Shown: one piece after another, positions 20,635 through 55,343 of the stretch | Numbering within the stretch: position 1 is the stretch's first letter | Layout: the number at the start of each line of letters is the position of its first letter | NCBI GenBank assembly: GCA_022710715.1 | Contig: JAKLGJ010000003.1 | Location: 25,083-89,082, forward strand | Source: Candidatus Omnitrophota bacterium | GTDB taxonomy: Bacteria; Omnitrophota; Gorgyraeia; Gygaellales; Profunditerraquicolaceae | Direction: 5' to 3' | DNA length: 64,000 nt | Notes under the pieces: generated by a model | Seen by the model: only the letters and a program-made list of their open reading frames with translations | What the model was told of the DNA's origin: nothing | Databases searched by the model: none | Program-made: the position numbers and the translations under genes

Positions 20635-20639
20635 GATTT

Positions 20640-31983: not shown

Positions 31984-32063
31984 TTGACCGAACATTCTCT
32001 CGAACGTGCCTGATTGTCTGTTTGCTGCTTTACTTCTCCCCCTCCCTTGTTGTGGTGGTGCGG

Positions 32064-34052: not shown

Positions 34053-34117
34053 CTTCCCCCTCCCCGTATTTAAGGGCCCCCCACTTATCCCTTGCGCTCC
34101 GGATTGAGCGACTTAGT

Positions 34118-34370
34118 AGACAACAAAAAAACCGAGTTGCGCTTGTTCGGCAACCCGGCTATCGAATAGATTGTTTGAGGGTTTTAAAAAGAGTTTAAGA
34201 TCAACTCAAAAAAAATTTCTGTTCCCCATTCCCCCAAAACAAATTGTCAGTTACTTTCGACCCGTGGCTTTCCTTCGGCGTGTTCATGCTGCGTTTCAAC
34301 CGAACTCCCGTCTGGGAGGTCCCCGCCTTACGACGAGTTTGGCTTTGTCGTTCAAAGTATGCCATACTTA
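34118..34370 (-). promoter_or_regulatory. second copy of the GEMM-like leader (with ~45-nt hairpin insertion) plus conserved terminator
   Basis: Matches copy 1 (...UAUGGCAUACUU..GACGACAAAGCCAAAC.CGUCGUAAGGCGGGGAC..GGAAAGCCACGGGUCGAAAGUAAC...) except for an inserted CUCCCAGACGGGAGUUCGG...CCGAA block. The terminator CCGGGUUGC / GCAACUCGG followed by UUUUUUUG is at 34121-34158. Confidence 0.45.
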
Positions 34371-34394
34371 ACCGAGGTTTTCAAGAGTCAAAAG

Positions 34395-36200: not shown

Positions 36201-37429
36201 TTCTTCCTCCTGGAAATTGTTTTCTGCAGGTCCAGTATCAACGCGTGCCTGCGTTCTTTTTCCGCTTGCTCCACGGTATCCGCCCAGGCATACGCCTCGG
36301 AATGCGGGCGCGGAGAGTACTTAAAGATGTACGCCGATTCGAACTCGACATCTCTGACCAGATCGACGGTTTGCTGAAAATCCTCCTGCGTCTCTCCGGG
36401 GAATCCCACGATAATATCCGTGCTTAAAGCGCCGCCGGGGACCAGCTTCCGGTACTGCCGCGCCAGATCGAGATAATACTCGCGGGTATACCCGCGATTC
36501 ATCCGTTTGAGCACCGCATTCGAACCGGCCTGAAAAGGCAGGTGCAGGTACGGCTTGATATTCGCATATTCGGCCATCACGCGGAATATTTCGACCGTGG
36601 TATCCCTGGGATGAGACGTAATGAAACTCAACTCATCCACTCCTTTAAGCTGCGCAACAGTCCGCAGCAGCGCGACAAAATCGCCCTCATCGCCGCGATA
36701 CGCATTGACGTTCTGACCCAGCAGAGTTATCTTGCGCCTGCCGCCGGCAGCCGCCTCCTTGATCTCGCGCACGATCTCTTTATACGGCCGATTGCGCAGG
36801 GCTCCGCGCACGAACGGGACCACGCAATACGCGCACATATTGGAACAGCCTTCGGAAATGACCACATACGCCTGCTCCGGATCCTGGCGGTATCCGGTAT
36901 GGTAGATCTCTTCCGGCCGGGACTCGGCGTCGGTCTCCCAGACCTTGACTTCATATAATGAAGATCCGCCCGATTGCTTCCGCGCGGAAAATAACCGCTC
37001 CAGGATCGCGGGGATTTTGGCGATATCCGCGGGACCGACCACAAAATCCACTGCCGGCGAACGCTCGAACACCGCCTCTTTGTAATTCTGGGCCATACAT
37101 CCCACAAGCCCCACCAGCGGCTTCTGCTTCGGTTTCTTACCGGCCGCGGACTTCCGCTGCGCGCGCGAGCTTTTGGTGAGCCTGCCGATCTCGCTCCAGA
37201 CCTTATCCTCCGCATGCTGGCGCACCGAACAGGTATTGAAGATCACCGCGTCGGCATGCTCGGCGGACTCTGTCAGCGCGTAGCCGGCCTGCTTGAGCAA
37301 CCCGGCGATCACCTCGCTGTCGCGCACATTCATCTGACATCCGAAGGTGCGCAAAAGTATACGCTTTCCATGACCCGGCTTGCCCTCGGATTTGCCTGTA
37401 TTGTCGTCGTTTCGCTCTTTTTCTGCCAT
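36197..37429 (-). CDS. miaB: tRNA-2-methylthio-N6-dimethylallyladenosine synthase
   Basis: TFGCQMN MTTase N-terminus. Radical-SAM CSNMCAYC. TRAM C-terminus. The first 100 nt overlap the recombinase 3' end. Confidence 0.85.
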   Translation of the reverse strand: MAEKERNDDNTGKSEGKPGHGKRILLRTFGCQMNVRDSEVIAGLLKQAGYALTESAEHADAVIFNTCSVRQHAEDKVWSEIGRLTKSSRAQRKSAAGKKPKQKPLVGLVGCMAQNYKEAVFERSPAVDFVVGPADIAKIPAILERLFSARKQSGGSSLYEVKVWETDAESRPEEIYHTGYRQDPEQAYVVISEGCSNMCAYCVVPFVRGALRNRPYKEIVREIKEAAAGGRRKITLLGQNVNAYRGDEGDFVALLRTVAQLKGVDELSFITSHPRDTTVEIFRVMAEYANIKPYLHLPFQAGSNAVLKRMNRGYTREYYLDLARQYRKLVPGGALSTDIIVGFPGETQEDFQQTVDLVRDVEFESAYIFKYSPRPHSEAYAWADTVEQAEKERRHALILDLQKTISRRKK

Positions 37430-39009
37430 TTTAGCCCCTCTTCATAACACATTTTCCAAGGTTCGTTAATCTCGACCTTGACGATCTCTTTGTTTTGAAT
37501 GTAAATGCCCTTGAATATAATCCTCATGAATGTTTTGATGAGATAGTCCATTTTCTCGCTGTTTGGATTGCTCCGCAGGCAAAGCAAAAAGTCCTGCGTT
37601 GCCTTGACCAAATTCACTGCATTGCGCTTTTCAAGAATCTTGATCTGAATCGCCTTCACATCCTGTCGGAGTTTCTTCTCCTCGTTTCTCAAAAGCTCGG
37701 CCCGATCCTTGTAGATATCAATATTGATCTTGTCCTCCGAGAAGACCTCGTAAAGCCCTTTCTGTTTCTCGAGATTTCTGGCAAGATCCTTTTCCTTGCC
37801 ATCCAGCTCTTCAATGATCTTATGCTCCGGCTCGGTGGCGCTAAGTTTGATGACGTCGCTCAATTCTTCAATAACGTGCAGGTTTTTGCTGATAGTGTCA
37901 ATGATATCCCAAACCTGCTTAGTAAGAACATCGGCGCGCACAGCCTTATTCGAACAATTGACATACGATACGCCCAGCGCCGAACACGCATACCACGGCC
38001 TTCTCATTTTGGTGCGGTGATTGCATGTAATCATCAGCCCACGGTAATTGCGGCCGCATTCGTTACATTTAACCACACCGGACAAGTGATACACGTTATT
38101 CCGGAAACGGACAACCGCATTCGTCCGGTTACGCGCTAAAAGTTTCTGCGCGGCATCATGCATCTCTTGCGTGATGATCGGCTCGTGGGCGTTTGGGACC
38201 TCGATCACCTTTGACGGATCATTATTCACGTAGCAATAGCCTTTACCCTCGCCATTCTTCGTCTTGCGCTTCTTATCGTAATGCCGCCGGTTCCACGTGA
38301 TCGTGCCCAAGTAAACCTTGCTATGCAAAATGTCCGAAATAAACTTGCCGTAAAATCTGCCGCCCTGTCTTGCCGAAACTCCAAGATGATAATAATGTCC
38401 GGCGATCTGCGCGGTACTCTTGCCGCCTAAATACTGATCGTAAATGTCCCTGACAATTTTTGCCTCTTCCGGATGAATCTCGAGCTTCTTGGTTTCTTTA
38501 TTGTGGCGATAGCCATACGGCGCAAAGCGTGCGCCTTGCCAGTGGCCGCGCTTAACACCCATGACCATGCCCGGGAATACACGCTCAACCAGACGATTGC
38601 GCTCAAACTCCGCACAAGAACCCAACATTTGAATCGCCATCTTACCGGCGCTGGAAGTCGTATCAAACGGCTCGGTCGCTGATTTATACCCAATGCCGAG
38701 GTTTTCAAACTCTTCGAGCAATCCCAACAAGTCCTTAAGCCGACGACTCAATCGATCCTGCTTATAGACCAAGACCAGATCGAACATCTTATTGCGCGCA
38801 TCGAAAAGAAGCTTTTTTAGCGCTGGCCTGTCCATATTCCCACCGGAAAATCCATCGTCCATGTAAACATCTCTTCCGGAAAGACTGCAAACAACATCCC
38901 AGCCGAAGTTCTTCGCGTATTGCAAAAGATAATTTCTCTGCACCTCCAGCGAAAAACCTTCTCTCGCTTGATCCTCTGTGCTAACTCTCGTATACAATGC
39001 GACTTTCAC
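37330..39009 (-). CDS. large serine recombinase (integrase)
   Basis: (GTG-start) MKVALYTRVSTEDQ...FDLVLVYKQDRLSRR resolvase catalytic domain, then a recombinase domain and a Cys-rich zinc-ribbon region. 559 aa. Confidence 0.85.
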   Translation of the reverse strand: MKVALYTRVSTEDQAREGFSLEVQRNYLLQYAKNFGWDVVCSLSGRDVYMDDGFSGGNMDRPALKKLLFDARNKMFDLVLVYKQDRLSRRLKDLLGLLEEFENLGIGYKSATEPFDTTSSAGKMAIQMLGSCAEFERNRLVERVFPGMVMGVKRGHWQGARFAPYGYRHNKETKKLEIHPEEAKIVRDIYDQYLGGKSTAQIAGHYYHLGVSARQGGRFYGKFISDILHSKVYLGTITWNRRHYDKKRKTKNGEGKGYCYVNNDPSKVIEVPNAHEPIITQEMHDAAQKLLARNRTNAVVRFRNNVYHLSGVVKCNECGRNYRGLMITCNHRTKMRRPWYACSALGVSYVNCSNKAVRADVLTKQVWDIIDTISKNLHVIEELSDVIKLSATEPEHKIIEELDGKEKDLARNLEKQKGLYEVFSEDKINIDIYKDRAELLRNEEKKLRQDVKAIQIKILEKRNAVNLVKATQDFLLCLRSNPNSEKMDYLIKTFMRIIFKGIYIQNKEIVKVEINEPWKMCYEEGLKWQKKSETTTIQANPRASRVMESVYFCAPSDVR

Positions 39010-39463: not shown

Positions 39464-39479
39464 TTTTCGTGTCGTATGA

Positions 39480-39745
39480 TGTCCGGTTTCACTGACATAC
39501 TGACATGACTCGTGTCAGTGAATGTCAGTCAAAACACCCCTCAAAACCCTCGAAATACCCGAAAATTGACGCTTTTTCCGCAAAAAACACCTATTTTGAA
39601 CCCCGTAGACCCTATTTTGACGTTCTCCCAATAGCCACATATGACATGACATCGATTTTTGAAATTTTGTATCACTGACAGAACGCGCCTCGCCCGACCC
39701 TCGGCCGACACCCCCTTCCAAGGACCCGTAGACCAGCATCGAGCT
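39480..39745. repeat. regulatory repeat A (TGACA/TGTCAG palindromes); diverged direct copy of region B at 58.7-58.97 kb
   Basis: Contains ACTGACATACTGACATGACTCGTGTCAGTGAATGTCAGT. The segment gacatgacatcgattttt...cgcctcgcccgaccctc...ccccttccaaggaccc is about 75-80% identical to 58868-58965. Confidence 0.6.
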
Positions 39746-39874
39746 ACCAGTGACAGCAATGACATTTTTTTCCGCACTTAAACTTTTACTTACCACACTC
39801 AATCACCCTGCTCCTTACTCCTAATCTACGAACACAATTAATAAAAAATCCTGTCATAATCGTCATAGCTGTCA

Positions 39875-42004
39875 TTAGAAAGGCCGCTCCGAATAATCAA
39901 CCTCACCCTCCCTGCGGACGCGTATGCCGTCCCACCGGCGAGACGCGCCGCAACGCCCCTTATTGATAGCGGGATATTGACGCAAGAGCTCCCGGCCAAA
40001 CATGATCTTGCTAAGCGGCCGGTACTCGCTCTCCAGACACCATTCCCGGTAAGCCACATACAAAGCATCACTGCCTATATCCGCCTGAGCGTCCAAGACA
40101 CACTGCTCCTCCACAAAGATGATCACGTTATTGTTCTCCTTGCGATAGGCGTCCTTCACGGTCTGCATCGAGGCGCTCTCCTCGAAATACCCGCGCTTCC
40201 TTAAACGCGTAAGGCCGTTAAGCGACCACAAGAAAATGCCGTCCAGCTCACTGGCCACGATCTTATGCTTTAACTTTGGATCGCGTTCCTCTATTGAAAA
40301 CTGCCGGTTAAACGGAAGGATTAAAAGCCGCCGGTAATACCCCTCGGTCTTATCCCCCACGCGCGGCATGTTATTGGTTGAGAAAAGAAGCTTGCAGTAA
40401 GGTTTGAATTGAAACGGCTGGCCGTATTTTTCGTCAGCGGAGATCGTATCGCCGGTCACGATCGCCTTAAACATGTTGTCATAGACATTTGTCTTGGCAT
40501 TGGTTTCAAGACTGATATTGACCAGTTTGTCCCGAAGCCGGGCTATGTAATGGGAATCGTTAAACTTCTCAAGCGGGATGGATGAGCAATTGTCCTTACC
40601 GATAAGCTCCTCGAGCACATACAAAACAACGCTTTTCCCATTGGCCCCCTCGCCAAACAAAAAGAGCGCCTTTTCATAATCATTGTCCCGGGTGAGGCAA
40701 TAGCCGAAATACTCCTGCAAAAGCATGATCCGGGCCGCGTCGCTTTCGAATATCTGATCAAGACTCTTCTGCCACAACAAACACTCGGCGTTTCCGCGAT
40801 ATGTCACATTAAGCTGGTTGATGGAATAGACATCCGCCGAATGCGGCAAGAGCTTCATCTTGTCGATGTCATAAAGCCCGTTTTTGACATTAAAGAGCGT
40901 GATGCCGTTAATGATGTCCGGCTTGATGAAAGTCTCGGTCTTAAGCGCGACAAGAACATTGCGAAGCTTGCTCGCTGAAAACCCGGCCCCGCAAGCATCC
41001 TTGATCCACTTCTGCACCTCCTCAACAAAAAGCGGCCGGTAACACCCGCCTTTGTATTCATAATAGGTGTCAGCGAAATTGATCAACCGATGATGCTTGA
41101 GAATTTCGTCAGCGACCTCATTGGCGTTAACCTTTCTGGCTATAAGCAGGCTTGGCCGCGACGACGCATAAACCTCCCCGCAATCATTCACCGCCTTTTC
41201 GATAACCGATTGGCCATAGGTCCGGCCGTCACCAAAATGCTTCTCATCCCACTTCGGCCGCATGAGGCCTGACTGCCGGAATAACGCGTCCATCTGCCCG
41301 GCGTCTTTGCCTGTCCAGAAGGCTAGCTTATTGCAGAGCGCCAGATCGGCTTCACTTTGAGAGGGATAATCGTTCTGCCATTGGCCGGAATAAAGCCGCT
41401 GAAACCTCTCCGCGTCTTTACTCTTGGCGATTAAGGAAAAGATGTCGTTAGCGGGGGCTTTATCTACAAACCGGCTGAATATGTCTTTAAGCGCATCAGT
41501 GCACTCGTTAAGTTCAGCCGAATAATTTTCAAGGCGTTTACCGGTAACGGTAAAGAATCGGCCCTTGGTATAAATCTCCAAGCCGATCTTTGAAATCTTG
41601 CAGGCCCGGGCGATCTTGCCCTTACAAAGAATATGAATACCTGTGCCGCTTGGCGAATACTCCGAATATGAATCAAGCGCCTTAAGAATCTCAACTGCAT
41701 ACGGCGCGATGGCTCCGTCTTTGACGCAGTGGTCAATATCCACGCCCACATACGGCGGCTGGAATACAAAGCCGACTCCCGCATAGCCGCGCTGAAGCGC
41801 AAGATCGCTTGCGGTCGTAAAGTCCGTCCATGTGCTTGGATCGTTTGTTTTGGCAGGACGTCCGGTAAGGACGTTCATCGGAACCTTGTCGGTGCGGTCT
41901 TTATTGTGCCTGAGCTGATAACCGACCCAACAAGACAGTTTAAGCAATTCCTGAGGAATAACCTCTTCGATCTTTCTCTTCTCTTTTCTTCTCTCGTCTT
42001 CCAT
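39875..42004 (-). CDS. bifunctional prim-pol / P4-type primase-helicase (D5-like NTPase)
   Basis: GVGFVFQPPYVGVDIDHC...SPSGTGIHIL is a prim-pol domain. The C-terminal half has Walker A FGEGANGKSVVL, typical of phage/plasmid primase P4-like proteins. Confidence 0.75.
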   Translation of the reverse strand: MEDERRKEKRKIEEVIPQELLKLSCWVGYQLRHNKDRTDKVPMNVLTGRPAKTNDPSTWTDFTTASDLALQRGYAGVGFVFQPPYVGVDIDHCVKDGAIAPYAVEILKALDSYSEYSPSGTGIHILCKGKIARACKISKIGLEIYTKGRFFTVTGKRLENYSAELNECTDALKDIFSRFVDKAPANDIFSLIAKSKDAERFQRLYSGQWQNDYPSQSEADLALCNKLAFWTGKDAGQMDALFRQSGLMRPKWDEKHFGDGRTYGQSVIEKAVNDCGEVYASSRPSLLIARKVNANEVADEILKHHRLINFADTYYEYKGGCYRPLFVEEVQKWIKDACGAGFSASKLRNVLVALKTETFIKPDIINGITLFNVKNGLYDIDKMKLLPHSADVYSINQLNVTYRGNAECLLWQKSLDQIFESDAARIMLLQEYFGYCLTRDNDYEKALFLFGEGANGKSVVLYVLEELIGKDNCSSIPLEKFNDSHYIARLRDKLVNISLETNAKTNVYDNMFKAIVTGDTISADEKYGQPFQFKPYCKLLFSTNNMPRVGDKTEGYYRRLLILPFNRQFSIEERDPKLKHKIVASELDGIFLWSLNGLTRLRKRGYFEESASMQTVKDAYRKENNNVIIFVEEQCVLDAQADIGSDALYVAYREWCLESEYRPLSKIMFGRELLRQYPAINKGRCGASRRWDGIRVRREGEVDYSERPF

Positions 42005-42006
42005 CG

Positions 42007-42237
42007 TTACACTCCGTTTTGAAATAGATAATCTTTAACCCTTCGGTAACAATCAAACAGCTTGCGCGCCTCTGAATCGGCATAAAAGTCCTCGCAGGCC
42101 TTATGAACAGCCGGGATGTCGTCAAACAAGACACGCTTAAGCCTCCCCGAGCCTTCAATACCCCGCATGGCAAACCCGCAATACAGTAAATACGTAGCCA
42201 AATAGAGATTCCCTGCTTCAAAATGCTTGTTTTTCAT
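42007..42237 (-). CDS. hypothetical small protein upstream of primase
   Basis: 76-aa ORF 3 bp from the primase start. Confidence 0.35.
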   Translation of the reverse strand: MKNKHFEAGNLYLATYLLYCGFAMRGIEGSGRLKRVLFDDIPAVHKACEDFYADSEARKLFDCYRRVKDYLFQNGV

Positions 42238-42249
42238 GTTTTCAATGCC

Positions 42250-42840
42250 TCCTACTAGCTACATACGCAAAGATTTGGAAAACTGACGGAAATATTTTCA
42301 TTTTTTTCGACCCTCTACTAGCTACATACGACGTTTTTTGTAAAACTGCCGGAAATTTCTTCACTTTCTTCACTACTTTCGCTCCCCTAAGCGTATATTC
42401 CGGATTTTTCCGGAAAGTGTCGGGAATATTTGTCCCCTCATAGGTGATTACGCAAAATTTCCAAAAGTGTCGATGCTTTTGGCAAACTTTTTTCACCTTC
42501 CATAGGTAAAGACGACATTTTTTCCAAAGTGTCGGGGCCCTCTACCGTAGGTATTACGTTTTTAGGTCCAAAATTTAGCATGATCCTTCAACTTTCCTTC
42601 CCAAGGCGTATATACAACCTTTTTTGTCAAAGTGTCCCACCCCTCACCGTAGTTATATGCTTTGGAAGGCAAGATTTCGCATCCCCCACATATGAACACG
42701 CAAAAAATCGAAAAGTGTAATACCCCCAAGCCCTCCCATAGGTGATTACAGAAAAAATGCGAAAGTGTAGGGGCCCTCACCTATGTACACGCAATTTTTT
42801 TCAAAGTGTCGAACTACCCTTCTACTAACCCATACAGGAA
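42250..42840. repeat. iteron-like direct repeat array (candidate replication origin)
   Basis: Two 63-bp-spaced copies of ctactagctacatacg...gaaaactg.cggaaat. Then seven degenerate units with an AAAGTGT(C/A) core followed by (C)ATAGGT / CGTAGGT at 40-100 bp spacing, at 42414, 42464, 42526, 42628, 42713, 42763 and 42803. Confidence 0.55.
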
Positions 42841-43125
42841 CTTTCCCGAAACTGGCGTAACTATTTGCGCCTAAAAAAGAAAAAGCCACTTCCGGCCAAT
42901 TGACTGGAAATGGCTTTTCCCGCACAGGCGAAACAGTGATCAGCTGTCTCGTAAGTCTATTTTAATTTTATAACAGCGCGAATCGTTCTCAAGATGGTCG
43001 TTACCAAGATATGGAATAAATCGCGCTTACGATTCCATCATATAACAACGCCAATCTTTCTCAAGGGGGTCGTTACTACAAAATAGCAAAAATTCAGAGA
43101 GGGTTAAAAGCGGGGATTTTGAAAC

Positions 43126-43506
43126 TTAATCTTCATGCTCAAGCGGCTTTTCCGGGATCATATCGTAAACCATGGTCTGGATCTCATATTCAAACCATTC
43201 CTGAAACACCTTCCACGACCTGTCCTTTGGCCACATCTCAGGATCCGTATACCAGCCGCCAAGCTCGTGCTCAAATATTTCTACGCAATGCTTCTTCAGA
43301 AACTTTTCGAACTTCTCATTCTCCTCATAGGCCGGGATCAAATACACATGCTTTGAATCAAAACCGTCGGTCTCAACATCCTCCGGCTTCATCTCATGTT
43401 CCGGCCCGTCATACTCCTTGCTGGTGTAGACCAACCAGTCAATGAAAGGCTTTTTCAGCTTCACGATCAAAGCGGCGCGGTTGATGTCGGGAAAATATTG
43501 TTCCAT
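43126..43506 (-). CDS. hypothetical small acidic protein (last gene of the 13-gene array)
   Basis: 126-aa ORF that directly abuts the stop of the TPR gene. Confidence 0.4.
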   Translation of the reverse strand: MEQYFPDINRAALIVKLKKPFIDWLVYTSKEYDGPEHEMKPEDVETDGFDSKHVYLIPAYEENEKFEKFLKKHCVEIFEHELGGWYTDPEMWPKDRSWKVFQEWFEYEIQTMVYDMIPEKPLEHED

Positions 43507-46362
43507 TTAGCTGATCGGGTAATTTAGTTTTATCCACTGATCAATTTTCTTGTTAACACTATGCATAAGGTGCTCGGCTAAACCAAGTTTCTTAGCAAGG
43601 ACTTGGCCAAACAGCTTGATAATTTTTTGAGGTGATCCACGTTTCGCCAATAATCCTATAATTAGATACAAATATCTATCCTTGATTTCATCGGGCAATG
43701 TCTCAATAAGTATCATCTTCATAAAATCTGTTAACACTGCAAATAACGACTCAACGGATGTTTCCTTGGAATCAAGAACGACGACAGCCATGTCAAATGC
43801 ATTGCCTGACTGTATCTGGAAATTATCTTTTTCTGCATAATAAAAAAGCATTTTTGCGGATATAGAAAGATAAAAATAACCAATCTTCATCAATTCGAGT
43901 ATTTTGTCGCAGTAGTCGTTTTCGGCCAGGGCTCCTTTTTGCAGAGCAACTGCAAGAAAATTCTGAATGCCAAAAGATTCGATTTTATGCTCGTTGCGAA
44001 TTAATTCTCTGAAGAAGACGTCATCACAAAACAATGGTATTTGTTTTTCGACGCACGATTGGATCGAATATATATAGGGCAATCCCAGTATTTTTTCTTT
44101 ACCTTTAAAACTATCATCCAATGGATGCTCTAATCCTATTGTTTTGAAATCCTGCGAATTTCGTATTTTTTCAAGAAAATCAATTTTCATTTTAATATTT
44201 TCAGCAGAGATTTCTTGTCGAAAGGCTTTTCCTTCTCGCGAGAAAATCGTTGTTAGCCCCTCGTCCTTGCTTTTGCTTAACTCCATAATCTCCATATCCA
44301 GCTCATCAAGCGTGGCTTTAAGAACATACACTTCGGAAAACATCTTCAATGGCAAATACAACAAATCCAAAAAGCCTAACGTAAACAATGCGATCGGCTC
44401 AATGATGGCCTTATTAGAATTAAGAACGATCTCCTGCTCTTTTCTTTGCTCAAGAGCACTTCCGTTAGCACAATAAAGCTTAGATCCTTGACCAATAAGT
44501 GCGCCCCAACAGACGAATAGGCTCCTTCCAGAAAAAGCAGAAAGCGCGCCAATGGTAATATTTTTTGATAAATACATTTCCATTATTTTCGTTGATCTGT
44601 CCGATGCTTTACTCAACATATCCTTCAGTCTTTCCGGACTAGCTTCAACTTTCCAAATTGCCTTATTATCAGGGAAAGAAATGTTAAAGTTATCTAAAAT
44701 ATTCTGGAAGGCTTTCACGTATTTACTTTTAATCTCAACTATCTTGATAACGTCATCTGCACCGTATTCATTTTTAACTATTATTTCGTCCATAACCCTT
44801 TTCCCGTAAAGTGCCTTGCCCAAACCGGAATCCTTATATAGCTCGAATTTGGCAATCGACGATTTAGGATTTGCAGTAATCAAGTATTCTTGATCGTGTC
44901 CATTCTTTTTAATCTTCACAAAGAAATTTTCGCGAACAGTTTCGGAATCTAACATTTCGCTCTTTTTATCTTTTCGGCTTGTAAACGTGTAAATATAAAA
45001 CAGTTGGATCTCCGGATTATTGAAATCGATTTCCAACGCTTTAAATAATTGCTTTATAGCTTCGTCATGGTTTTGGATTTTTAAGAATGCTCTCGCCAAA
45101 ATGAGGAAAGAATCCTTGTCTTCAACTTCATCTTTAACCTCAGATAGCAGTTTTATTCCCGCATCCTTTTCCTTTCCTATATCAATCATGACTTTGGCAT
45201 AATTAAGTTTATGACGAATATTCTTTGGCTCACGCTTCGACAGTTCGAGGTATAAAGACATAGCGTCATCTAGTTGATCCATTTCCTCATAAATGGCCGC
45301 TTCCAACTCGAACGTAAAAGGAACAAACTTTCCTGATTTTCTAAGATTTTGGCAAATAGTTAAACATTTCTCGAGGTTCTTGCTTCTATGCTCTTTTGAT
45401 TTGTAAAGACAAATTAAATAATCCCGCAATACATCATCAAACAATGACTCCGAAATAAATGTTTCATATAACGGTATCGCCTTATCATATGCCCCAATAC
45501 TTTTAAAATGCCTCGCTAATTCGATTTCTGCTATGTTTTTTTCTAACCCAACAGAGTTTTGTCTTGCTTCAAGAGACAACTCTTCAAACGCTTTGACATT
45601 TCCTTGGCTTCTTTTCAGTTCTGCCTCTGCCAGCAGAATTCTTGGATTTCTCCCAAACTTTAAATAGAGATTGTCGACTATTTTTTGTGCTTCATCATAA
45701 GCCGCTTTCTTGCTTAAACATTCAATCATGAGTATCCCGGGGATAAGATCCTTTTCAGCCTCACCGTCATAATGCTTTCTTATTGCCTCAATGGCCTCAT
45801 CTACCTTGGAATCAGGACGCTCTAAATAACACGAAACTAAAATCGGAAAGATCTCATCTTTGTTGATACCTTTTTCTATCGCACAAATAAAATCTTTAAT
45901 CGCATCATCTGGTGATTTCCGCAAGGTATTAAGCCGCGCACGATTTGCATAGGCCGCCGCACTATCCGGATTAAGCACGATCGCCGCATTGATATCCTCA
46001 AAAGCTTTTGTAAAATCATCTAATATTATCCTGACGCTGGAGCGATTTATATACGCGTCTTCCAAGACGCCCTTCTTTTCTGAATCTTTTAATAAATCAA
46101 TCCCTTTACTTAATAGCCGTTCCGCCTCTTTCAGCTCTTCTATATGTTCTAGCAAAAGCCCAAATCGCCAAACCCTTTCCTTCATGATTGACTCAAGCAG
46201 ATATGAGCCAAACGAGAAATAGTTTTCGGCAATACCCGGATCAGCATCAATGGCACTTTGAAAATATTGCTTAGCATTTTTCCTATCGCCTTTATCGGCA
46301 TAGGCTATTGCAATATTCAACAATGCTCCGCTATCTTTTTGGAATCTTTTATCTATATTCAT
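43507..46362 (-). CDS. large TPR-repeat protein (951 aa), no NTPase motif seen
   Basis: Many TPR-like helix pairs (AIAYADKGDRKNAKQYFQSAIDADP etc.). Its start overlaps the upstream stop by 4 bp. Confidence 0.55.
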   Translation of the reverse strand: MNIDKRFQKDSGALLNIAIAYADKGDRKNAKQYFQSAIDADPGIAENYFSFGSYLLESIMKERVWRFGLLLEHIEELKEAERLLSKGIDLLKDSEKKGVLEDAYINRSSVRIILDDFTKAFEDINAAIVLNPDSAAAYANRARLNTLRKSPDDAIKDFICAIEKGINKDEIFPILVSCYLERPDSKVDEAIEAIRKHYDGEAEKDLIPGILMIECLSKKAAYDEAQKIVDNLYLKFGRNPRILLAEAELKRSQGNVKAFEELSLEARQNSVGLEKNIAEIELARHFKSIGAYDKAIPLYETFISESLFDDVLRDYLICLYKSKEHRSKNLEKCLTICQNLRKSGKFVPFTFELEAAIYEEMDQLDDAMSLYLELSKREPKNIRHKLNYAKVMIDIGKEKDAGIKLLSEVKDEVEDKDSFLILARAFLKIQNHDEAIKQLFKALEIDFNNPEIQLFYIYTFTSRKDKKSEMLDSETVRENFFVKIKKNGHDQEYLITANPKSSIAKFELYKDSGLGKALYGKRVMDEIIVKNEYGADDVIKIVEIKSKYVKAFQNILDNFNISFPDNKAIWKVEASPERLKDMLSKASDRSTKIMEMYLSKNITIGALSAFSGRSLFVCWGALIGQGSKLYCANGSALEQRKEQEIVLNSNKAIIEPIALFTLGFLDLLYLPLKMFSEVYVLKATLDELDMEIMELSKSKDEGLTTIFSREGKAFRQEISAENIKMKIDFLEKIRNSQDFKTIGLEHPLDDSFKGKEKILGLPYIYSIQSCVEKQIPLFCDDVFFRELIRNEHKIESFGIQNFLAVALQKGALAENDYCDKILELMKIGYFYLSISAKMLFYYAEKDNFQIQSGNAFDMAVVVLDSKETSVESLFAVLTDFMKMILIETLPDEIKDRYLYLIIGLLAKRGSPQKIIKLFGQVLAKKLGLAEHLMHSVNKKIDQWIKLNYPIS

Positions 46363-47336
46363 CTTCCACCCTTCTCGGCATAAAGCTCAATAGCCTCATC
46401 AAGGCGTCCACCGGCTCGCAACAACATGGCTTTAAGATTGATACAGTCATTATTATCCGGTTCCAATGAAATTGCGGCGTCGATAAACGGCAACCCTTCC
46501 AACGGCTTATCATCAAATAGACTTGCAAGCGCTCTATTCTTGCAAGCAATCACGGATTTTTTTCCCAAAATATCAAATGCCAACTTAAAATTAATAGCGG
46601 CAGATTTTCTATCCCCCAACGCCGCTTGACATGCTCCCAAGTTGTTATGAACCTTAAACCTTGCCATAATAGGAACTTGCCCATCAGATTCAAACGCTTT
46701 TAACAGCCCTTCATATATGACCTTTGCCGTACCAAATTTTTCCTTGTCTAATAGGATTTTGGCCTCATCTATGTTTTTCTTATATTTTGAACTGGCTAGT
46801 TCCGCATCGCTATCTATCGCCAAAACTGCCGGTGGTTCTAAAGACGCGCTTTTCTTTGCTTGAGATGCAACGGCGCCTAGAACATTATCCTGTTTGAGTA
46901 TCGACAATATTTCGTTTACACCATTAAGGGTTGCTTCTGAAGTTTGAGCGCTCGAAATAGGAACATTTTCAGATTCAGGTAGCGTTGCGCCAAAGTGCTC
47001 AAGAAATTTTGAAACAATTTTATTAACTGTGGCTTCTGTTTCATTCCCAAAGTCAGCGCCACAATTAATCAGGCTTTGGCGCAGTTCTGCGGTAACAATT
47101 TTAGGATTAGTTCGGTAATTAGTCTTAAGCAATCTAACAAGTTGGCTGTTCTCGCCGAAAGACGATCTCAACAAGTAATCTATCGATTCAATTTGCAAAT
47201 CAATCCCTGTCTTGCTGATTGAAATACTTATGCTCATCAGCAAGGGATCCTTCTTAAAAAGCCACTTTAACGACTTATCTAGCCCATGCTTAATCGCATG
47301 CCCAATAATCAATTGCTGCAACCACAAAAAATTCAT
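46359..47336 (-). CDS. hypothetical protein with C-terminal TPR repeats
   Basis: 325-aa ORF. The C-terminus AKVIYEGLLKAFESDG...AISLEPDNNDCINLKAMLL is TPR-like. Confidence 0.45.
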   Translation of the reverse strand: MNFLWLQQLIIGHAIKHGLDKSLKWLFKKDPLLMSISISISKTGIDLQIESIDYLLRSSFGENSQLVRLLKTNYRTNPKIVTAELRQSLINCGADFGNETEATVNKIVSKFLEHFGATLPESENVPISSAQTSEATLNGVNEILSILKQDNVLGAVASQAKKSASLEPPAVLAIDSDAELASSKYKKNIDEAKILLDKEKFGTAKVIYEGLLKAFESDGQVPIMARFKVHNNLGACQAALGDRKSAAINFKLAFDILGKKSVIACKNRALASLFDDKPLEGLPFIDAAISLEPDNNDCINLKAMLLRAGGRLDEAIELYAEKGGR

Positions 47337-47363
47337 CAGAGTCCTCTTTTATAAAATCCGCGA

Positions 47364-48152
47364 TTATTTTAGTGGCGTGGTACATGTGCCATCGCTATCG
47401 GTACGAAATACCTTAGTGCTATTTGTCCTATATCGCTGAAGGGCTGTGTTACTAGGAAGATTATCAAAAACACCTGACTGAGTTGAAATAATCGTATCTC
47501 TGGGCGATACGGCTTTTATAAAATCCAAATTTGCACCGTTCTCAGAACCATGATGACTTGCACGTAAAACATGGCAATTAGATAGCTTCCAATCGGCCAT
47601 AATGAGTTCGAGCTCAGAATCAGATGCATCTCCGCAGACTAAAAAATTATTGGCAGGACTAGAAACCCAGACGACAAGACTTGCATCATGGCACTCTCGT
47701 GTTTCATTATTATTTACATTCTTTCGTGGCCCCAAGACAAGGAATTCACAGTCGGAAAACTTTTTTCTTACATCTTTCGTGCAAGTAAACCTTTTTTGAT
47801 TATCCGGTACCAGTGCATCCTTCAGCTTGAGGTATTCATTCCAATCATCTAACGACAAGGAATTATCCCCGTGCCTGCGTTGATATGGGGATCCCCAGAA
47901 TTCAGCGACAGTGAAATTACCTACCAAATCCTCCATCCCCAAATAGTGATCGTGATGTGGGTGCGTGATAATCAGCAAATCTATATAAGTTTTCCCGATA
48001 GTCTGTTTTAAATAATTGGCAATGTTTGTTGGTTTTGATGCTCCGTTACTGAAACGTCTATACCCGCAATCTATAACAACAAGATCATTGTCCATCTCAA
48101 AAATTGCGCAATCCGCACACCCGACATTTAAAAAATGAGCTTTAAACGACAC
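47364..48152 (-). CDS. ComEC-type MBL-fold metallo-hydrolase (stand-alone, putative nuclease)
   Basis: ITHPHHDHYLG (HxHxDH) and the ASHHGSENG motif typical of the ComEC/Rec2 beta-lactamase-like domain. Confidence 0.6.
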   Translation of the reverse strand: MSFKAHFLNVGCADCAIFEMDNDLVVIDCGYRRFSNGASKPTNIANYLKQTIGKTYIDLLIITHPHHDHYLGMEDLVGNFTVAEFWGSPYQRRHGDNSLSLDDWNEYLKLKDALVPDNQKRFTCTKDVRKKFSDCEFLVLGPRKNVNNNETRECHDASLVVWVSSPANNFLVCGDASDSELELIMADWKLSNCHVLRASHHGSENGANLDFIKAVSPRDTIISTQSGVFDNLPSNTALQRYRTNSTKVFRTDSDGTCTTPLK

Positions 48153-48155
48153 TTC

Positions 48156-49259
48156 CTATACTCCTATCTTCTTTAATAGGTTTTCAGCATTTGAGTCCAT
48201 GTATACTTTGGGCGTTCCACCAGTGCCCTCAAAAGAAATCAAAATATGATGACCATTTCGCGTGCTTACAGAAAAGCAATCTTCGGTCTCCCCGTCAATA
48301 TCAACGCTTAACCCAGAGGCCCCTTCTGATGATTGGTATCTGCTGTCAATCGATCCATCTTTATCGTCTCCGTGCCGCTTATCAGAAATCACAACCAATG
48401 CAGGTTTATTGTTTTTCATAGAAAGAAACAAGTCTTCAGAAAATCCCGATTCTAATCCGTGATGTGGTGCGATGAGAATTGACAGGCCGTAATCTTTTAG
48501 CAACTTCTTTAATGATGGCTGGTCACCAGAAACAGAGTGCCATTCTGGATGTTCAGAACTTTTTTGCCTGTCGAATATCGTGTAACGCTTTTCAAGCCCT
48601 TTCCCTTCATTTAATAAATGTTTTAGGCAATCAGGTGTTATGTCACCGGGAATCAGCATCGTATGGATTCCATGTCGATAAAAAAGCACTAAGCTCGTCC
48701 CATTTCCATAATCTTGATCATTTTTAGGATGAAGTTCATTTACAACTGGCGGCCTCACATAGAAAAGACCGTACTCGAGATTTGGAACAGACCGCGAAGA
48801 CTCATAACAAATTGTTTGTAGTGGCAATGTCCTAGAAGAATAAAGCTCTTTGTATAGCTTTATATTTTCCTCACTCCCCTCAGGGTTCTTTATTCGCTCC
48901 CAATCAAGCGCCTCGGGTTTTGCGGAACCATCCGTCTTATCATGTGGACAAGTATGGAGAGAAGAATAAAAAAGCGAGTTCTTGCCATCTTTTGATGCAA
49001 GCGAGACTATTTCCGAAATATGATCTGCATGCGGATGCGAAAGAATTGTTTGGGCAACCTTGCATTTTTTGTAATCATCGAGATGCGGGATTACGTGCTT
49101 AGACAGAAATTCGGTGGGGCTGAATTCTTGGCTACACCCAAAATCATATAAGATTCCTTGGTTCAAACCTGTCCGGATAAAAATACTTAATCCACGACCA
49201 ACATTGAATACCCAAATAAAACTTTTGATCGTTTGGGCCCATTGAGGGACTTTTGCCAT
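48156..49259 (-). CDS. ComEC-type MBL-fold metallo-hydrolase paralog
   Basis: SHPHADHISE and LIAPHHGLESG motifs. 367 aa. Confidence 0.6.
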   Translation of the reverse strand: MAKVPQWAQTIKSFIWVFNVGRGLSIFIRTGLNQGILYDFGCSQEFSPTEFLSKHVIPHLDDYKKCKVAQTILSHPHADHISEIVSLASKDGKNSLFYSSLHTCPHDKTDGSAKPEALDWERIKNPEGSEENIKLYKELYSSRTLPLQTICYESSRSVPNLEYGLFYVRPPVVNELHPKNDQDYGNGTSLVLFYRHGIHTMLIPGDITPDCLKHLLNEGKGLEKRYTIFDRQKSSEHPEWHSVSGDQPSLKKLLKDYGLSILIAPHHGLESGFSEDLFLSMKNNKPALVVISDKRHGDDKDGSIDSRYQSSEGASGLSVDIDGETEDCFSVSTRNGHHILISFEGTGGTPKVYMDSNAENLLKKIGV

Positions 49260-49268
49260 ATGCTCACC

Positions 49269-49922
49269 TTATTCCTTGCCAAAAACAGCCGCCGAAGCAG
49301 ATTTATTTTCACGCGAATTTAAATAGCCTATCCCACTGAATAGTTGAATCGCGCAGACCAAAACACACGAAATCGCTATGGTTATTATTGTTTGCCCAGC
49401 GACATATAAAATTACCGCTAATAATGCTGAATTTAGAATTCCCACAAGATACAGCCACCACGATTGAGAACTTAAAATATTGAAGAAAGGCGGCTTTGCG
49501 CAGTTGGTATACATTTTACTTTTGTTCTCAAAACCCAAAGGCTTGGCTGAAAGGAATAATCCCCGCTGTTCGTTGATATACCGCATACAAAAAACAAAAT
49601 AAACCCTATTCCTGACGATCAAAAAGAACATACAAAGACCGAATATAAAAGCAATAGTCAACCCAACAATCAACGCGGCTTTTATATCCAACCCCTTGTC
49701 GATGGAGTACTGATAAAGACCGATCGCGATACCAGCAATTGTCGTATAAAATGTTGCCAGAAATTTAAAAACATCCACTATCTGCGCATCGTAATATCTG
49801 ACTTGGTCAAAGCATTGATTGAAATCATTCTGCAAGAAATCGACGGCCGCTTTCTCCAGCTCCGTATTCTTATCATTGCTCATAACGCCTCCTCTAAATT
49901 TATCCGCGAAAACTTCATACAA
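49269..49922 (-). CDS. membrane protein (about 4 TM)
   Basis: Hydrophobic helices. Its start overlaps the hsdS stop. Confidence 0.45.
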   Translation of the reverse strand: MYEVFADKFRGGVMSNDKNTELEKAAVDFLQNDFNQCFDQVRYYDAQIVDVFKFLATFYTTIAGIAIGLYQYSIDKGLDIKAALIVGLTIAFIFGLCMFFLIVRNRVYFVFCMRYINEQRGLFLSAKPLGFENKSKMYTNCAKPPFFNILSSQSWWLYLVGILNSALLAVILYVAGQTIITIAISCVLVCAIQLFSGIGYLNSRENKSASAAVFGKE

Positions 49923-51252
49923 CCAGCTCCCCGCGGAAGGCTTTGGCTAAAATTGACTGCTCGAGCTTGTCCGTATAGCTTTTTGACTTGATATATCTCT
50001 CGACAAAACCATCAAGCGCACTGAAGCTCGATTTAACTTTACTAACGATCTGATCCTGCTCCGCTTTAGGCGCAAAAACAAAAGGCAATTCTCTGACTCG
50101 TTGACAATTAAGGGCCTGCGGGCCAGACCCACTGCCAAAACTTCTGTTATTTTCATATTGATAATGAAACCAATACCAAAGATATTCGGGATTTACCCGT
50201 CCATGGGCTATTTGAACGGCCGCAATGTTCTGATTTATTGCGGCCTCAATATTAAGAATTGCAGATTGCCCTCTAGTTTTTCCCTCACCTATCATCGCTA
50301 TCAAAACTGTACCCGTAGGAAATAATTTACTTGAGCAGTTATCCAATCCTTCCTGCGTTATCCTTTCGCGAGATGCGCTAATTTTATTATTTCGCACTTC
50401 TCCAGAACTTATCCATGGTATTGAACCATTCCAATATTTGGTAATTTTTCGCGATGGAGTGCTCCCGTTGTTTACAACCCCGATAAACCCGATACAACAC
50501 GCCACCCAAGAAGAAGGAAAATTGAACTGCTCTTCATAGCTCGCTAAAGAAATTTTAGTAATTTCCTCAAAGTTTTTCTTTTCGCGGTTTGTTATTTCTG
50601 ACTTTAGAATAAACTCTCTTATTAAAGCGAGGTCATCTTCAGCGTTTAACGTGTTGTTTTCTATCCTCCACGTCTTCGTCAGCTCACCGGAGAAAGCCGC
50701 GGCAAGGACAGATTGACGAAAACGACTCAAGATCACAGGAATTGTGTCGAGGCGGGATTGGGCGTCTTTGACTTTTGCCAGCAGACTATCGAGCTTGTCT
50801 GCAATGCTCTTTTGTTCTTCTTCATCGGAAGGAAACGAAATCTCGGCAGTCTTAAGGAAATTCTTGTTGATATGCTGAAGCCCTGTACCAGTACTGGTTT
50901 CAAGAATAAAGTTCTTGCTTCTCCGTATAAAATATTCAAGAAACTTGGTATTTAATCCATTTTTAGGCGACAAGACAGCCATTGTGGAGCCAACTGCGCC
51001 AGTCATTCCGCTGGCACATTTGCCTATACTTCCATCCCAAACCAGTAAAACATCCTCTTTTTTTGCTCTGGGTACTTTGGGATCATTGGTAAATGACCGA
51101 GCCGGTTTACCCTCTAATTCATCAATTAAAATATAAGGATCATATCCTTTCTTTTCATGGCTGATGACGGCGGCAGGTTTTTTCCCTTTACGAGAAGAAA
51201 CTACATCCTTTAATGGACTTGAAATCCATCCCTTGGGCAATTTATTCTCCAT
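49915..51252 (-). CDS. hsdS: type I restriction-modification specificity subunit
   Basis: MENKLPKGWISSPLKDVV is an HsdS TRD N-terminus. Two-TRD architecture with conserved central and C-terminal helices. Confidence 0.75.
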   Translation of the reverse strand: MENKLPKGWISSPLKDVVSSRKGKKPAAVISHEKKGYDPYILIDELEGKPARSFTNDPKVPRAKKEDVLLVWDGSIGKCASGMTGAVGSTMAVLSPKNGLNTKFLEYFIRRSKNFILETSTGTGLQHINKNFLKTAEISFPSDEEEQKSIADKLDSLLAKVKDAQSRLDTIPVILSRFRQSVLAAAFSGELTKTWRIENNTLNAEDDLALIREFILKSEITNREKKNFEEITKISLASYEEQFNFPSSWVACCIGFIGVVNNGSTPSRKITKYWNGSIPWISSGEVRNNKISASRERITQEGLDNCSSKLFPTGTVLIAMIGEGKTRGQSAILNIEAAINQNIAAVQIAHGRVNPEYLWYWFHYQYENNRSFGSGSGPQALNCQRVRELPFVFAPKAEQDQIVSKVKSSFSALDGFVERYIKSKSYTDKLEQSILAKAFRGELVV

Positions 51253-52648
51253 TACTCTCCAGCTCCGCTACGATTTCCTTGAGGCTATCAACAACCGTTT
51301 CAAGCTCTGTAATAGCTTCTGATGCCAAGACCTGCGGCTCCGGCAAGTCCTCCGGATCATCTAACGATTCATCCTTTAGCCATGTTATATCCAGTTTATA
51401 ACCTCGATCCTTAATCTCCTTAATATTGAACCGGTGAAAACGGCCATCAACGCCCGAATCTGTTCGCTTGCTTTGGCCGTTGGGATCCGTGCCATAGCAC
51501 TTCTCAAATTCTTTGAAATGTTCAGAGGTAAGCGGCCGGTCTTTTTTGGTAATCCCGGGCACATTGGAACGGCCGTCAAATATCCAGACATTCTCCGTAG
51601 GCAAGCCCTTCTGGAAGAAAATCACGTTCGCCTTGACTCCTTGGCTGTACGGCGTAAATGTTCCTCTGGGCAGGCGCAAAATCGTGTGCAAGTTGCAATC
51701 CTGCGTCAGGATCTCAATCACCTCTCCGGCCTTGTCTTCAAAAAGGCAGTTATCCGGCAAAACCATAGCCGCACGGCCTCCGGGTCGTAGCACATTCACG
51801 ACATGCTGAATAAAGTTGAGCTGTTTGTTGCTCGTTGAAATAGTAAAATCATCTCTCTCCGGAGCTTGATTCGCGCCCTTGGTACCAAACGGTGGATTCG
51901 TAAGAATGCAATCGTATCGTGTTCCTTTTAACGACTCATAAATTGAGTCGCCGAGGTAAATATCCGCGTGAATTCCGTGCAAGTATAAATTCATCAAAGC
52001 AAGGCGGCGCGGCCGGGCAACAAGCTCTGTGCCAGTATAAACTTTCGTTGTGATGCGCTTGGCATCATCCCGCTCAAGACTACCCTTGGTTTGCTCCATC
52101 AACCACTCGTAAGCGCAAACCAAAAAACCCCCGGTGCCTGCCGCGGGGTCATGAATAATAAAATCCTTGGACTTGCGAGGATCCGGCTTCATGCATGTGA
52201 CGATTGACTGAATAAGAACGCGCGGGGTGAAATACTGACCGGCCCCCTTCTTGCCTTCTGATGCGGACTTCTCAAGCAATCCTTCATAAGCGGCCGCTTT
52301 GACATCCACATTCAAACTTGTCCATTCGATCTCATCGATCAGGTTGATAAGCTTCTTTAAGTTGACCGGATTCGCAAATTTCGAGATCGCTCCGGCATAA
52401 ATATCCCCAAGCGTGCCTTTTTGTTTGCCGAGGCCGCGTAAAGCATCCACATAAAAATCAGTTAAATCTGTTCCGGACTTCTCGCGCAAGACTGGCCATG
52501 AATATTCCTTAGGAATATCCGCGCCTTTCTCCTCCGCCATTTTTAAGAACAGCAAATACGTCAGCTGTTCGATATAATCCCCGTAATCCACACCGTCATG
52601 GCGTAGCGTGTGACAAAATCCCCATAATTTTCCGACTACATCGCTCAT
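51242..52648 (-). CDS. hsdM: type I restriction-modification N6-adenine DNA methyltransferase subunit
   Basis: HsdM N-terminal domain, AdoMet motif DPAAGTGGFL, catalytic LTNPPFG. Confidence 0.85.
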   Translation of the reverse strand: MSDVVGKLWGFCHTLRHDGVDYGDYIEQLTYLLFLKMAEEKGADIPKEYSWPVLREKSGTDLTDFYVDALRGLGKQKGTLGDIYAGAISKFANPVNLKKLINLIDEIEWTSLNVDVKAAAYEGLLEKSASEGKKGAGQYFTPRVLIQSIVTCMKPDPRKSKDFIIHDPAAGTGGFLVCAYEWLMEQTKGSLERDDAKRITTKVYTGTELVARPRRLALMNLYLHGIHADIYLGDSIYESLKGTRYDCILTNPPFGTKGANQAPERDDFTISTSNKQLNFIQHVVNVLRPGGRAAMVLPDNCLFEDKAGEVIEILTQDCNLHTILRLPRGTFTPYSQGVKANVIFFQKGLPTENVWIFDGRSNVPGITKKDRPLTSEHFKEFEKCYGTDPNGQSKRTDSGVDGRFHRFNIKEIKDRGYKLDITWLKDESLDDPEDLPEPQVLASEAITELETVVDSLKEIVAELESNGE

Positions 52649-55335: not shown

Positions 55336-55343
55336 ACTTTCCC

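Follow-up and report, generated by a model that had tools for sequence, protein, structure and literature searches.

Organization of the island and of its repeat array

The stretch analysed here (the window, 64,000 nucleotides of contig JAKLGJ010000003.1 from a Candidatus Omnitrophota bacterium) contains a genomic island located at approximately 37.4–55.3 kb, with a GC content of 36–50% compared with about 55% in the flanks. The subject of this work is a non-coding repeat array within the island, composed of twelve promoter-like units arranged in tandem and in the same orientation. All genes around the array lie on the minus strand. Read in the direction of the genes, the cargo of the island is followed by two 72-bp repeats, a terminator hairpin, the array, a gene encoding a DUF5659 protein, and a primase-helicase gene, and further downstream by a 411-nt non-coding region, an open reading frame (ORF) of 75 amino acids (aa), a helix-turn-helix (HTH) gene, and a serine recombinase gene (Table 1). 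A preliminary description of this sequence had read the repeats as initiator-binding iterons of a replication origin. Sequence comparisons led us to a different reading, to which we assign a probability of roughly 55%, namely that the array is the tandem promoter/operator control region of the island backbone operon and not a set of iterons.

The repeats noticed in the preliminary description exceed chance by far. Two 57-nt copies (42252–42308 and 42315–42371), 79% identical, are placed 63 bp apart, and the heptamer AAAGTGT occurs seven times on the plus strand (at 42414, 42464, 42526, 42629, 42712, 42762, and 42803) and nowhere else on that strand of the 64-kb window outside 42414–42809. The expected number of occurrences is about 5.4 for both strands of the whole window and about 0.02 for one strand of the 400 nt that hold the seven copies. 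A repeat search recovered a family of 36–47-nt units ending in AAAGTGT independently of the earlier description. When the degenerate heptamers CAGTTTT, CCAGTTT, CGAAATC, and CTAAATT were counted, the array comprised 12 units running from 42855 to 42245 with a spacing of 39–72 bp. The stretch was also correctly described as gene-free: it is non-coding, and the ORFs of 47–84 aa listed in it are purely mechanical. Since whole-unit insertions and deletions follow the unit spacings of 39–72 nt, it is suggested, with the frames themselves not checked, that no reading frame is kept in the array.

On the gene strand, each unit consists of the sequence (ttccg)ACACTTT, a spacer of 13–16 nt, a TA-rich box (variants TATACG, TATATA, TATGTA, TAATAC, TAATCA, and TACATA), a further 4–7 nt, and a G-rich, Shine-Dalgarno-like box that reads GGGG, GAGGG, or GGAGG. 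The spacer centre consists of A-runs, T-runs, or mixtures of the two, with G and C below 5%, and conservation is strictest in the heptamer and not in the G box. The gene-proximal unit 12 can be written as CAGTTTT-N13-TATGTA-gctagta-GGAGG-N10-ATG, in which the ATG is the start codon of the DUF5659 gene and GGAGG its ribosome-binding site. An Rfam search at E values of up to 10 returned nothing relevant for the array, and its RNA showed no excess of structure over shuffled sequences (z = −1.1). A BLASTN comparison along the lines proposed in the preliminary description, run with positions 42240–42930 against the PLSDB plasmids and the INPHARED phages, gave no match. In IMG/VR, the patterns CGACACTTT-N15-17-TATAC and three ACACTTT heptamers 33–62 nt apart yielded, among the matches listed, only chance occurrences upon rescoring with a hidden Markov model (HMM) of the unit.

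Conservation and orientation of the units in related loci

A search with the primase recovered 25 Omnitrophota loci, and a DUF5659 profile search recovered 80 metagenome loci. The unit HMM was applied, with a threshold of at least 12 bits, to the 64 metagenome loci in which no less than 900 nt upstream was available. The 264 unit matches were all situated within 1 kb upstream of DUF5659, with none elsewhere in these loci of about 10 kb, and the placement of units in the genome loci agrees with this result. The copy number varied from 0 to 13 per locus at this threshold and reached 15 when weaker matches were included. Among the 55 loci with units, 42 had them directed only toward DUF5659, while the remaining 13 had a block of 2–4 units on the opposite strand followed by a block on the forward strand; convergent or mixed arrangements were absent, which is the directionality expected of bacterial promoters. 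In nine loci checked of these 13, the opposite-strand block abuts a minus-strand gene, that is, either a gene encoding 67–90 aa accompanied by the recombinase or the recombinase gene itself; in L185 and L222, no divergent gene was found next to the block.

The position of the -10-like box relative to the translation signals was likewise constant regardless of the gene. The geometry formed by a TA box, 5–8 nt, GGAG(G), 7–12 nt, and a start codon recurs before DUF5659 (TATGTA-N7-GGAGG in the window and TATATA-N7-GGAGG in L023) and before the unrelated 67–90-aa gene (TAATAC-N8-GGAGA-N8-ATG in L017, aATGTAC-gcatta-GGAG-N8-ATG in L188, TATACG-cctta-GGAG in L184, with further cases in L189 and L202). 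In L022, L184, and L207, the arrangement TATGTA-N6-ATG has the spacing of a leaderless mRNA, with a conserved start codon.

Arrays of relatives differ from each other by insertions and deletions of whole units, and orthologous units across loci are more alike than units inside one array. The nucleotide identity between the array of the window and those of L001, L002, L019, and L020 is 83–92%. For L020, the array is 83% identical to that of the window, compared with 55% for DUF5659 and 53% for the primase (residues 1–287 only), and this difference in conservation between the array and the two proteins points to a conserved reading factor or a strong constraint. A minimal form was found in L167, L168, L172, and L182, whose DUF5659 proteins are 87–95% identical; besides the terminator and the Shine-Dalgarno sequence, it has only two units, one with ACACTTT and one variant. 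Since such minimal versions exist, one or two units appear to suffice, as expected of a promoter.

Some related loci lack the array or its usual first gene. L014–L016 have no array, an intergenic region of about 170 bp, and an HTH_17 gene in the DUF5659 slot; their prim-pol domain is 76–81% identical to that of the window, and L016 has the helicase half of L020. Locus L025 bears a diverged array together with an XRE-type first gene and no DUF5659. The array-less L014–L016 and L007 show another conserved leader, aaaaatTGGGCAATcTTGGGTAAAacCGGGAAGGc, which starts the region some 130 nt ahead of the first gene; it contains three TGGGnAA-like repeats at intervals of about 10 nt and is possibly an alternative operator.

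A proposed role of the array as a promoter and operator region

Because the orientation of the units follows the neighbouring gene and the distance to the translation signals is kept for non-homologous genes, the units look like promoters and not like iterons. The internal G-rich boxes match the proximal Shine-Dalgarno sequence, so the array looks like the product of repeated duplication of a promoter and its leader. The signal resides in the DNA, given that A-runs and T-runs are interchangeable and that the array RNA folds no better than shuffled sequences. Host intergenic regions have canonical promoters of the TTGACA-17-TATACT/TATATT type, and since both the host and the 72-bp repeats use canonical promoters, the units would represent a special promoter class. 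For the same reason, that is, because the units are not canonical sigma-70 sites while those of the host are, we infer a dedicated factor that reads ACACTTT.

In the mechanism that we propose, the array would have been built from tandem duplicates of one module consisting of a promoter plus its 5′ leader. The TA-rich box would act as a -10-like element about 15–16 nt downstream of the invariant ACACTTT box, which would occupy the place of the -35 element yet is unlike TTGACA, and RNA polymerase would start near the G-rich box, 4–7 nt past the TA box. Candidates for the dedicated factor are an activator or an alternative sigma factor, and possibly DUF5659 or a protein of the host or of a helper phage. 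With so many copies, the genes for replication and excision would be expressed strongly or in a switch-like manner, and the controlled operon would comprise the genes encoding DUF5659, the primase-helicase, the 75-aa ORF, the excisionase-like HTH protein, and the serine recombinase, with the upstream terminator insulating it from transcription of the cargo. The array may have an added role as an origin.

By its position, DUF5659 is the obvious candidate for the reading factor. In array-less sister elements, and also in Firmicutes relatives, its slot is occupied by an HTH_17 gene of the Xis/AlpA-like kind. Comparison with PDB sequences gave no match. The AlphaFold2 model was good (pLDDT 88); Foldseek found nothing significant for it in the PDB and, in BFVD, only other DUF5659 or uncharacterised phage proteins. 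DUF5659 had no match in PHROG or NCBIfam, and a literature search found no mention of the family. Covariation between the heptamer and DUF5659 clades was not seen, and ACACTTT was present across 50–100% DUF5659 identity.

Several observations weigh against reading the units as promoters. No unit passed a scan with the sigma-70 consensus, the TA box is usually without a T at hexamer position 6, and TTGACA is absent. Twelve promoters about 50 bp apart would occlude each other, and orthologous units keep their own spacer sequences, which a bare promoter would not need. The fold search with DUF5659 gave no informative match, and the diverged array of L025 goes with an XRE-type first gene and not with DUF5659. 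No unit was found in 45 kb of host DNA, and a host regulon is therefore not evident. Finally, RepA_N iterons, too, are direct repeats that have inverted sub-repeats and a poly-A tract at their centre (PMC7145576).

A special form of the promoter reading, which we regard as possible though unlikely, is that the array acts as a sensor and amplifier, in which up to 15 promoters without a -35 element would be silent with the housekeeping polymerase and fired only by a factor supplied in trans, such as a stress sigma factor or the activator or sigma factor of a helper or infecting phage. If so, infection would switch on excision and replication of a defence-carrying island, the phage factor might in addition be titrated by the dense repeats, and the satellite-like lifestyle as well as the promoter class would be new, in a phylum without genetics. 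To our knowledge, the Omnitrophota are uncultured or barely cultured, and we know of nothing on the control of their mobile elements. In the promoter reading at large, ACACTTT-N15/16-TAWWYA would define a new class of promoter and help in the search for its reading factor. The family of about 100 islands combines a very well conserved non-coding control region with swappable defence cargo and a mosaic backbone in which helicase halves are exchanged.

Other known element types were considered for the array and rejected. A sigma-54 promoter was dismissed by eye owing to the wrong GG/GC spacing, and promoters of the extracytoplasmic function (ECF) type and of the Bacteroidetes type were dismissed by eye comparison with their consensus. 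The likeness of some units to T7-like phage promoters (TAATCACCTATGGGAGGG versus TAATACGACTCACTATAGGGAGA) requires a 6-nt gap and was judged coincidental; other units do not show it, and the island has no gene for a single-subunit RNA polymerase. The units are neither abutting nor identical, which speaks against both a CRISPR, for which no cas gene is present, and a ToxI-like 36-nt repeat antitoxin RNA, for which neither a toxin gene nor RNA structure was found. A parC-like partition site was rejected as no ParA or ParM gene is present.

Alternative explanations for the array

The reading proposed in the preliminary description, in which the primase-helicase binds to the units and the excised island begins to replicate at the array, now seems rather improbable to us. 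Many direct repeats beside the gene of a P4-family primase-helicase, conserved across the family, are what it would predict; the three conserved boxes fall at about 0, 2, and 3 helical turns, i.e., on one face of the DNA, and some spacers have inverted sub-repeats around a poly-A tract, like the RepA_N iterons (PMC7145576). The array does sit beside a prim-pol/P4-type gene, whose family assignment stands according to Pfam and TIGR01613, with one correction: as all genes here run on the minus strand, the array lies on the upstream (5′) side of the 76-aa DUF5659 gene that precedes the primase gene. Repeats bound by an initiator should vary with its DNA-binding domain, and those of the array do not. 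The window and L020 have the array in common yet differ in the C-terminal halves of their primases, which match D5_N/DUF5906/Pox_D5 in the window and are unrelated, with no Pfam match beyond the helix-bundle domain, in L010, L016, and L020. Conversely, L016 has the helicase half of L020 and no array. The absence of the array from L014–L016 despite the shared primase N-terminus is the kind of observation that the preliminary description itself had named as one that would count against an origin. The dependence of unit orientation on gene orientation and the fixed distance to the Shine-Dalgarno sequence also oppose iterons. We found no AT-rich unwinding region (GC 0.33–0.48 throughout, no lower than in the rest of the island), no DnaA box with up to one mismatch in 42000–43200, and no helical phasing of the 39–72-bp unit spacing. 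Typical iterons measure 8–22 bp, and the units, with about 40 bp and three boxes, are longer. What does vary with the helicase type is another cluster of repeats, 3′ of the primase gene, at the position of the origins of phage-inducible chromosomal islands (PICIs) and of plasmid pRN1 (PMC6092414, PMC4234260).

Further explanations were weighed. The internal units may be operators, with only the proximal unit or units acting as promoters and the others serving as sites of a regulator (DUF5659 or a host protein), either as cooperative operators or as a sink that sets a sharp on/off threshold; we consider this about as improbable as an iteron origin, and these two are the main rivals of the promoter reading. 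Several observations suit it. The position of DUF5659 is that of HTH regulators (HTH_17, XRE) in sister elements, loci with HTH_17 in that slot have no array, the canonical promoter-proximal unit often comes with the palindromes AAAGT-N6-ACTTT and CCGGA-N4-TCCGG, and both the retained unit-specific spacers and the tight spacing, which speaks against the firing of every unit, would be explained. Against it, the internal units retain the full TA box and the G-rich, Shine-Dalgarno-like box of the proximal promoter, Foldseek gives DUF5659 no DNA-binding fold, ACACTTT stays constant while DUF5659 diverges to 50–55% identity, and L025 has an array without DUF5659. A function at the RNA level, with the array transcribed as a long 5′ leader whose G-rich boxes would act as a CsrB-type sponge for ribosomes or a protein or as a regulatory leader, is very unlikely. 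Every unit ends in a GGAGG, GAGGG, or GGGG box, and read-through from the canonical promoters across the terminator upstream would make the array a leader; nevertheless, the missing Rfam match and lack of excess folding fail to indicate a structured RNA, the A-runs and T-runs are interchangeable, the invariant part is the heptamer and not the G box, and units are found on either strand, with every set directed at a gene of its own. Even less probable is a role as primase start sites. The pRN1 protein ORF904 and the NrS-1 polymerase recognise GTG through their helix-bundle domain (PMC8718748), the primase of the window has such a domain (PF22763, E = 2.9e-31), and AAAGTGT contains the template motif 5′-GTG-3′ of prim-pols of this kind, exposed on one strand in all copies. 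However, GTG makes up only three of about 20 conserved positions, the A located 5′ of it would demand initiation with T or U, and the gene-oriented geometry would be left unexplained; since degenerate units (CAGTTTT, CGAAATC) are without GTG and array-less sister elements share the same prim-pol domain, we keep this explanation only at low probability. An equally small chance is given to neutral debris, in which slippage would have duplicated a promoter and leader without function beyond the proximal copy. The copy number of 1–15 among close relatives, changing by whole-unit insertions and deletions, would fit, but orthologous units are 83–92% identical where the proteins are about 55% identical, the boxes are intact in internal copies, and divergent loci have retained or enlarged their arrays on either side.

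A candidate replication origin 3′ of the primase gene

Judged from its repeats and its position, the origin of the island is more likely in the non-coding region at 39464–39874 than in the array. This region contains 11 TGTCA/TGACA motifs compared with a window mean of 1.3 per kb, an enrichment of about 20-fold, and it holds all three exact copies of TGTCAGTGA in the window as well as a near copy, in both orientations and around a stretch of lower GC content. It is 75–97% identical in L001–L005, which have the helicase half of the window. In L014, L016, and L020, a different region is found at this place, with direct and inverted repeats ACGTTCACAACG and TTGTGAATG, including 18-nt arms, that flank an AT-rich purine/pyrimidine tract. 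As the region varies with the helicase half and sits where the PICI and pRN1 origins lie, it makes the better origin candidate; in the PICI origin, which directly follows the replication gene on its 3′ side, two sets of iterons surround an AT-rich region (PMC6092414), and the origin of pRN1 also lies 3′ of its replication gene (PMC4234260). For building replicons or vectors, or for inspecting peaks of metagenome coverage, the place to look would be 3′ of the primase gene and not at the conspicuous repeats. The preliminary description had further held that the element is no passive island, and this agrees with the replication and recombination module that it carries; its autonomous replication is plausible.

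Table 1. Features of the island region, with positions and strands in the window.
Feature	Position	Strand	Remarks
Array of 12 tandem promoter-like units, same orientation	42245..42861	-	
Unit 1, heptamer CCAGTTT	42849..42855	-	degenerate
Unit 2, heptamer ACACTTT	42803..42809	-	
Unit 3, heptamer ACACTTT	42762..42768	-	
Unit 4, heptamer ACACTTT	42712..42718	-	
Unit 5, heptamer CGAAATC	42673..42679	-	degenerate; sole unit type in L007/L230-type loci
Unit 6, heptamer ACACTTT	42629..42635	-	
Unit 7, heptamer CTAAATT	42572..42578	-	degenerate
Unit 8, heptamer ACACTTT	42526..42532	-	
Unit 9, heptamer ACACTTT	42464..42470	-	
Unit 10, heptamer ACACTTT	42414..42420	-	spacer contains the palindrome CCGGA-N4-TCCGG
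Unit 11, heptamer CAGTTTT	42342..42348	-	first of the 63-bp pair
Unit 12, heptamer CAGTTTT	42279..42285	-	last unit, gene-proximal
Intrinsic terminator (strong hairpin and T-run)	42871..42921	-	directly upstream of unit 1
Two 72-bp repeats	42965..43093	-	three in L019/L020
DUF5659 protein, 76 aa	42007..42237	-	first operon gene; Pfam
Prim-pol (AEP and NrS-1-type helix-bundle domain) fused to D5/P4-family SF3 helicase, 709 aa	39875..42004	-	
Non-coding region 3′ of the primase gene, candidate origin	39464..39874		411 nt
ORF, 75 aa	39236..39463	-	without family match
MerR_1/HTH_17 excisionase-like gene, 59 aa	39009..39188	-	directly upstream of the recombinase gene, abutting its start
Large serine recombinase (Resolvase, Recombinase, Zn_ribbon_recom domains)	37330..39009	-	Pfam

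Terminator and repeats upstream of the array

The terminator located upstream of unit 1 is conserved in six of six aligned relatives, in two different stem sequences. Each of the 72-bp repeats beyond it contains a canonical sigma-70-like promoter (TTGAGA-16-TATGAT and TTGAGA-16-TAAAAT). Transcripts from these promoters are predicted to end at the terminator as an RNA of about 88 nt with folding z values of −5 to −6.6, which had no match in Rfam, and the region encoding it exists in two sequence variants among the relatives. Either a small RNA or a leader acting by attenuation is conceivable, and the RNA recalls the RNA-based immunity of phage P4.

Genes of the island and its surroundings

The primase-helicase matched the Pfam families NrS-1 HBD (helix-bundle domain), D5_N, DUF5906, and Pox_D5, the last three above their cut-offs, and its C-terminal end forms a winged-helix-like domain. 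Membership in the P4 family was confirmed with TIGR01613 (243.7 bits, cut-off 108.7), the match to the PHROG family annotated as DNA primase reached E = 1e-164, and nearly all relatives found by the primase search come from Omnitrophota genomes. The gene is a mosaic within the family: the N-terminal AEP and helix-bundle part (about 285 aa) is common at 53–81% identity, and the C-terminal 420–500 aa are either of the D5/P4 type or an unrelated P-loop module without a Pfam match (L010, L016, L020).

The 59-aa HTH gene likely encodes a recombination directionality factor or a regulator. The serine recombinase is distantly CcrB-like (200 bits, under the cut-off of 900). At 37330–37429, its ORF shares 100 nt with that of host miaB, the 3′ end of the former overlapping the 5′ end of the latter, so the island seems to be inserted at the extreme 5′ end of miaB, and attR is therefore expected within 37330–37429. 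The opposite end lies near 55335–55344, adjoining radC. The cargo (43507–55335) includes a TPR-GreAB-C-PIN protein of 951 aa (PF20698), a TPR (tetratricopeptide repeat) protein, two proteins with a metallo-beta-lactamase fold, a 126-aa ORF, a 217-aa membrane-like ORF, and, judged from the translations alone, a complete type I restriction-modification system with R, M, and S subunits. It looks like a defence set, and no packaging, capsid, or interference genes were recognised among the cargo.

Outside the island, the upstream regions of two paralogous secreted proteins of 661 and 662 aa (31581–32063 and 34053–34394) have the motif ttcgatagccgggttgc...gcaactcggtt in common, which can fold into a hairpin with a T-rich sequence behind it and is possibly a shared cis-regulatory element. 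A long, near-perfect palindrome (ggggacgttccccaaggtaccacccctgg / ccaggggtggtaccttggggaacgtcccc) is situated at 20521–20639 between two host genes.

Comparison with known systems

Functionally, the island is most closely paralleled by two systems, plasmid pRN1 and the Gram-negative PICIs. In the Sulfolobus plasmid pRN1, the small repressor gene orf56 and the prim-pol-helicase gene orf904 form one operon with the promoter upstream (PMC4234260). The island has in common with it a small gene that would be co-transcribed with a prim-pol, SF3 helicase, and winged-helix gene, the helix-bundle domain, and a separate origin on the 3′ side (here a candidate). In pRN1, however, one promoter within 64 bp stands where the island has a 600-bp array of 12 modules, the small gene encodes a CopG-like repressor and not DUF5659, and the origin is a 100-nt stem-loop, while the 3′ region of the island has the TGTCAGTGA repeats. 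Moreover, pRN1 is an archaeal plasmid, unlike this bacterial island with a serine recombinase.

PICIs, both the Staphylococcus aureus pathogenicity islands (SaPIs) and those of Gram-negative bacteria, resemble the element in being integrative islands that carry cargo and have a small gene just upstream of the replication gene. In Gram-negative PICIs, this small gene encodes AlpA, located upstream of pri-rep, which is self-activating and helper-induced and triggers excision and replication (PMC6092414). Here, DUF5659 replaces AlpA and a large serine recombinase stands in contrast to the PICI tyrosine integrase; the PICIs have capsid, packaging, or interference genes of a kind not recognised in the island, and a tandem promoter array has not been described for them. 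The PLE of Vibrio cholerae is, like the present element, an island with a large serine recombinase (PMC7145576, PMC6002521) and repeats with a central poly-A tract, and only one of its several non-coding repeat families is a true iteron set (PMC7145576). Its initiator is of the RepA_N type, and its repeats are neither oriented by genes nor tied to ribosome-binding sites. The staphylococcal cassette chromosome mec (SCCmec) is also moved by large serine recombinases and encodes a primase-helicase pair (PMC7581432). It differs in its primase and helicase families and in its host phylum, and no comparable repeat array has been reported for it.

In the satellite phage P4, the iterons of ori and crr are octamers bound by the C-terminal domain of the alpha primase-helicase. 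The primase of the island also has a TIGR01613 C-terminal domain with a winged-helix-like end and lies near short repeated sites. However, the array is independent of the helicase C-terminal domain and has a promoter-like geometry, and the N-terminus of the island protein is an AEP prim-pol, unlike the Toprim-type primase of P4. We found no description of so dense a tandem array; its units bear some likeness to certain phage promoters. The T4 middle promoters with their MotA box and the cII-dependent promoters of lambda are activator-dependent and without a -35 element, and T7 A1–A3 are tandem early promoters. The units of the island recall them by a -10-like box combined with a non-TTGACA box near -30/-35 that a dedicated factor would read, and by their tandem arrangement in front of an operon of early or replication genes; they differ in that ACACTTT matches none of the T4, lambda, or T7 elements and in that 12–15 copies at intervals of about 50 bp form a far denser series.

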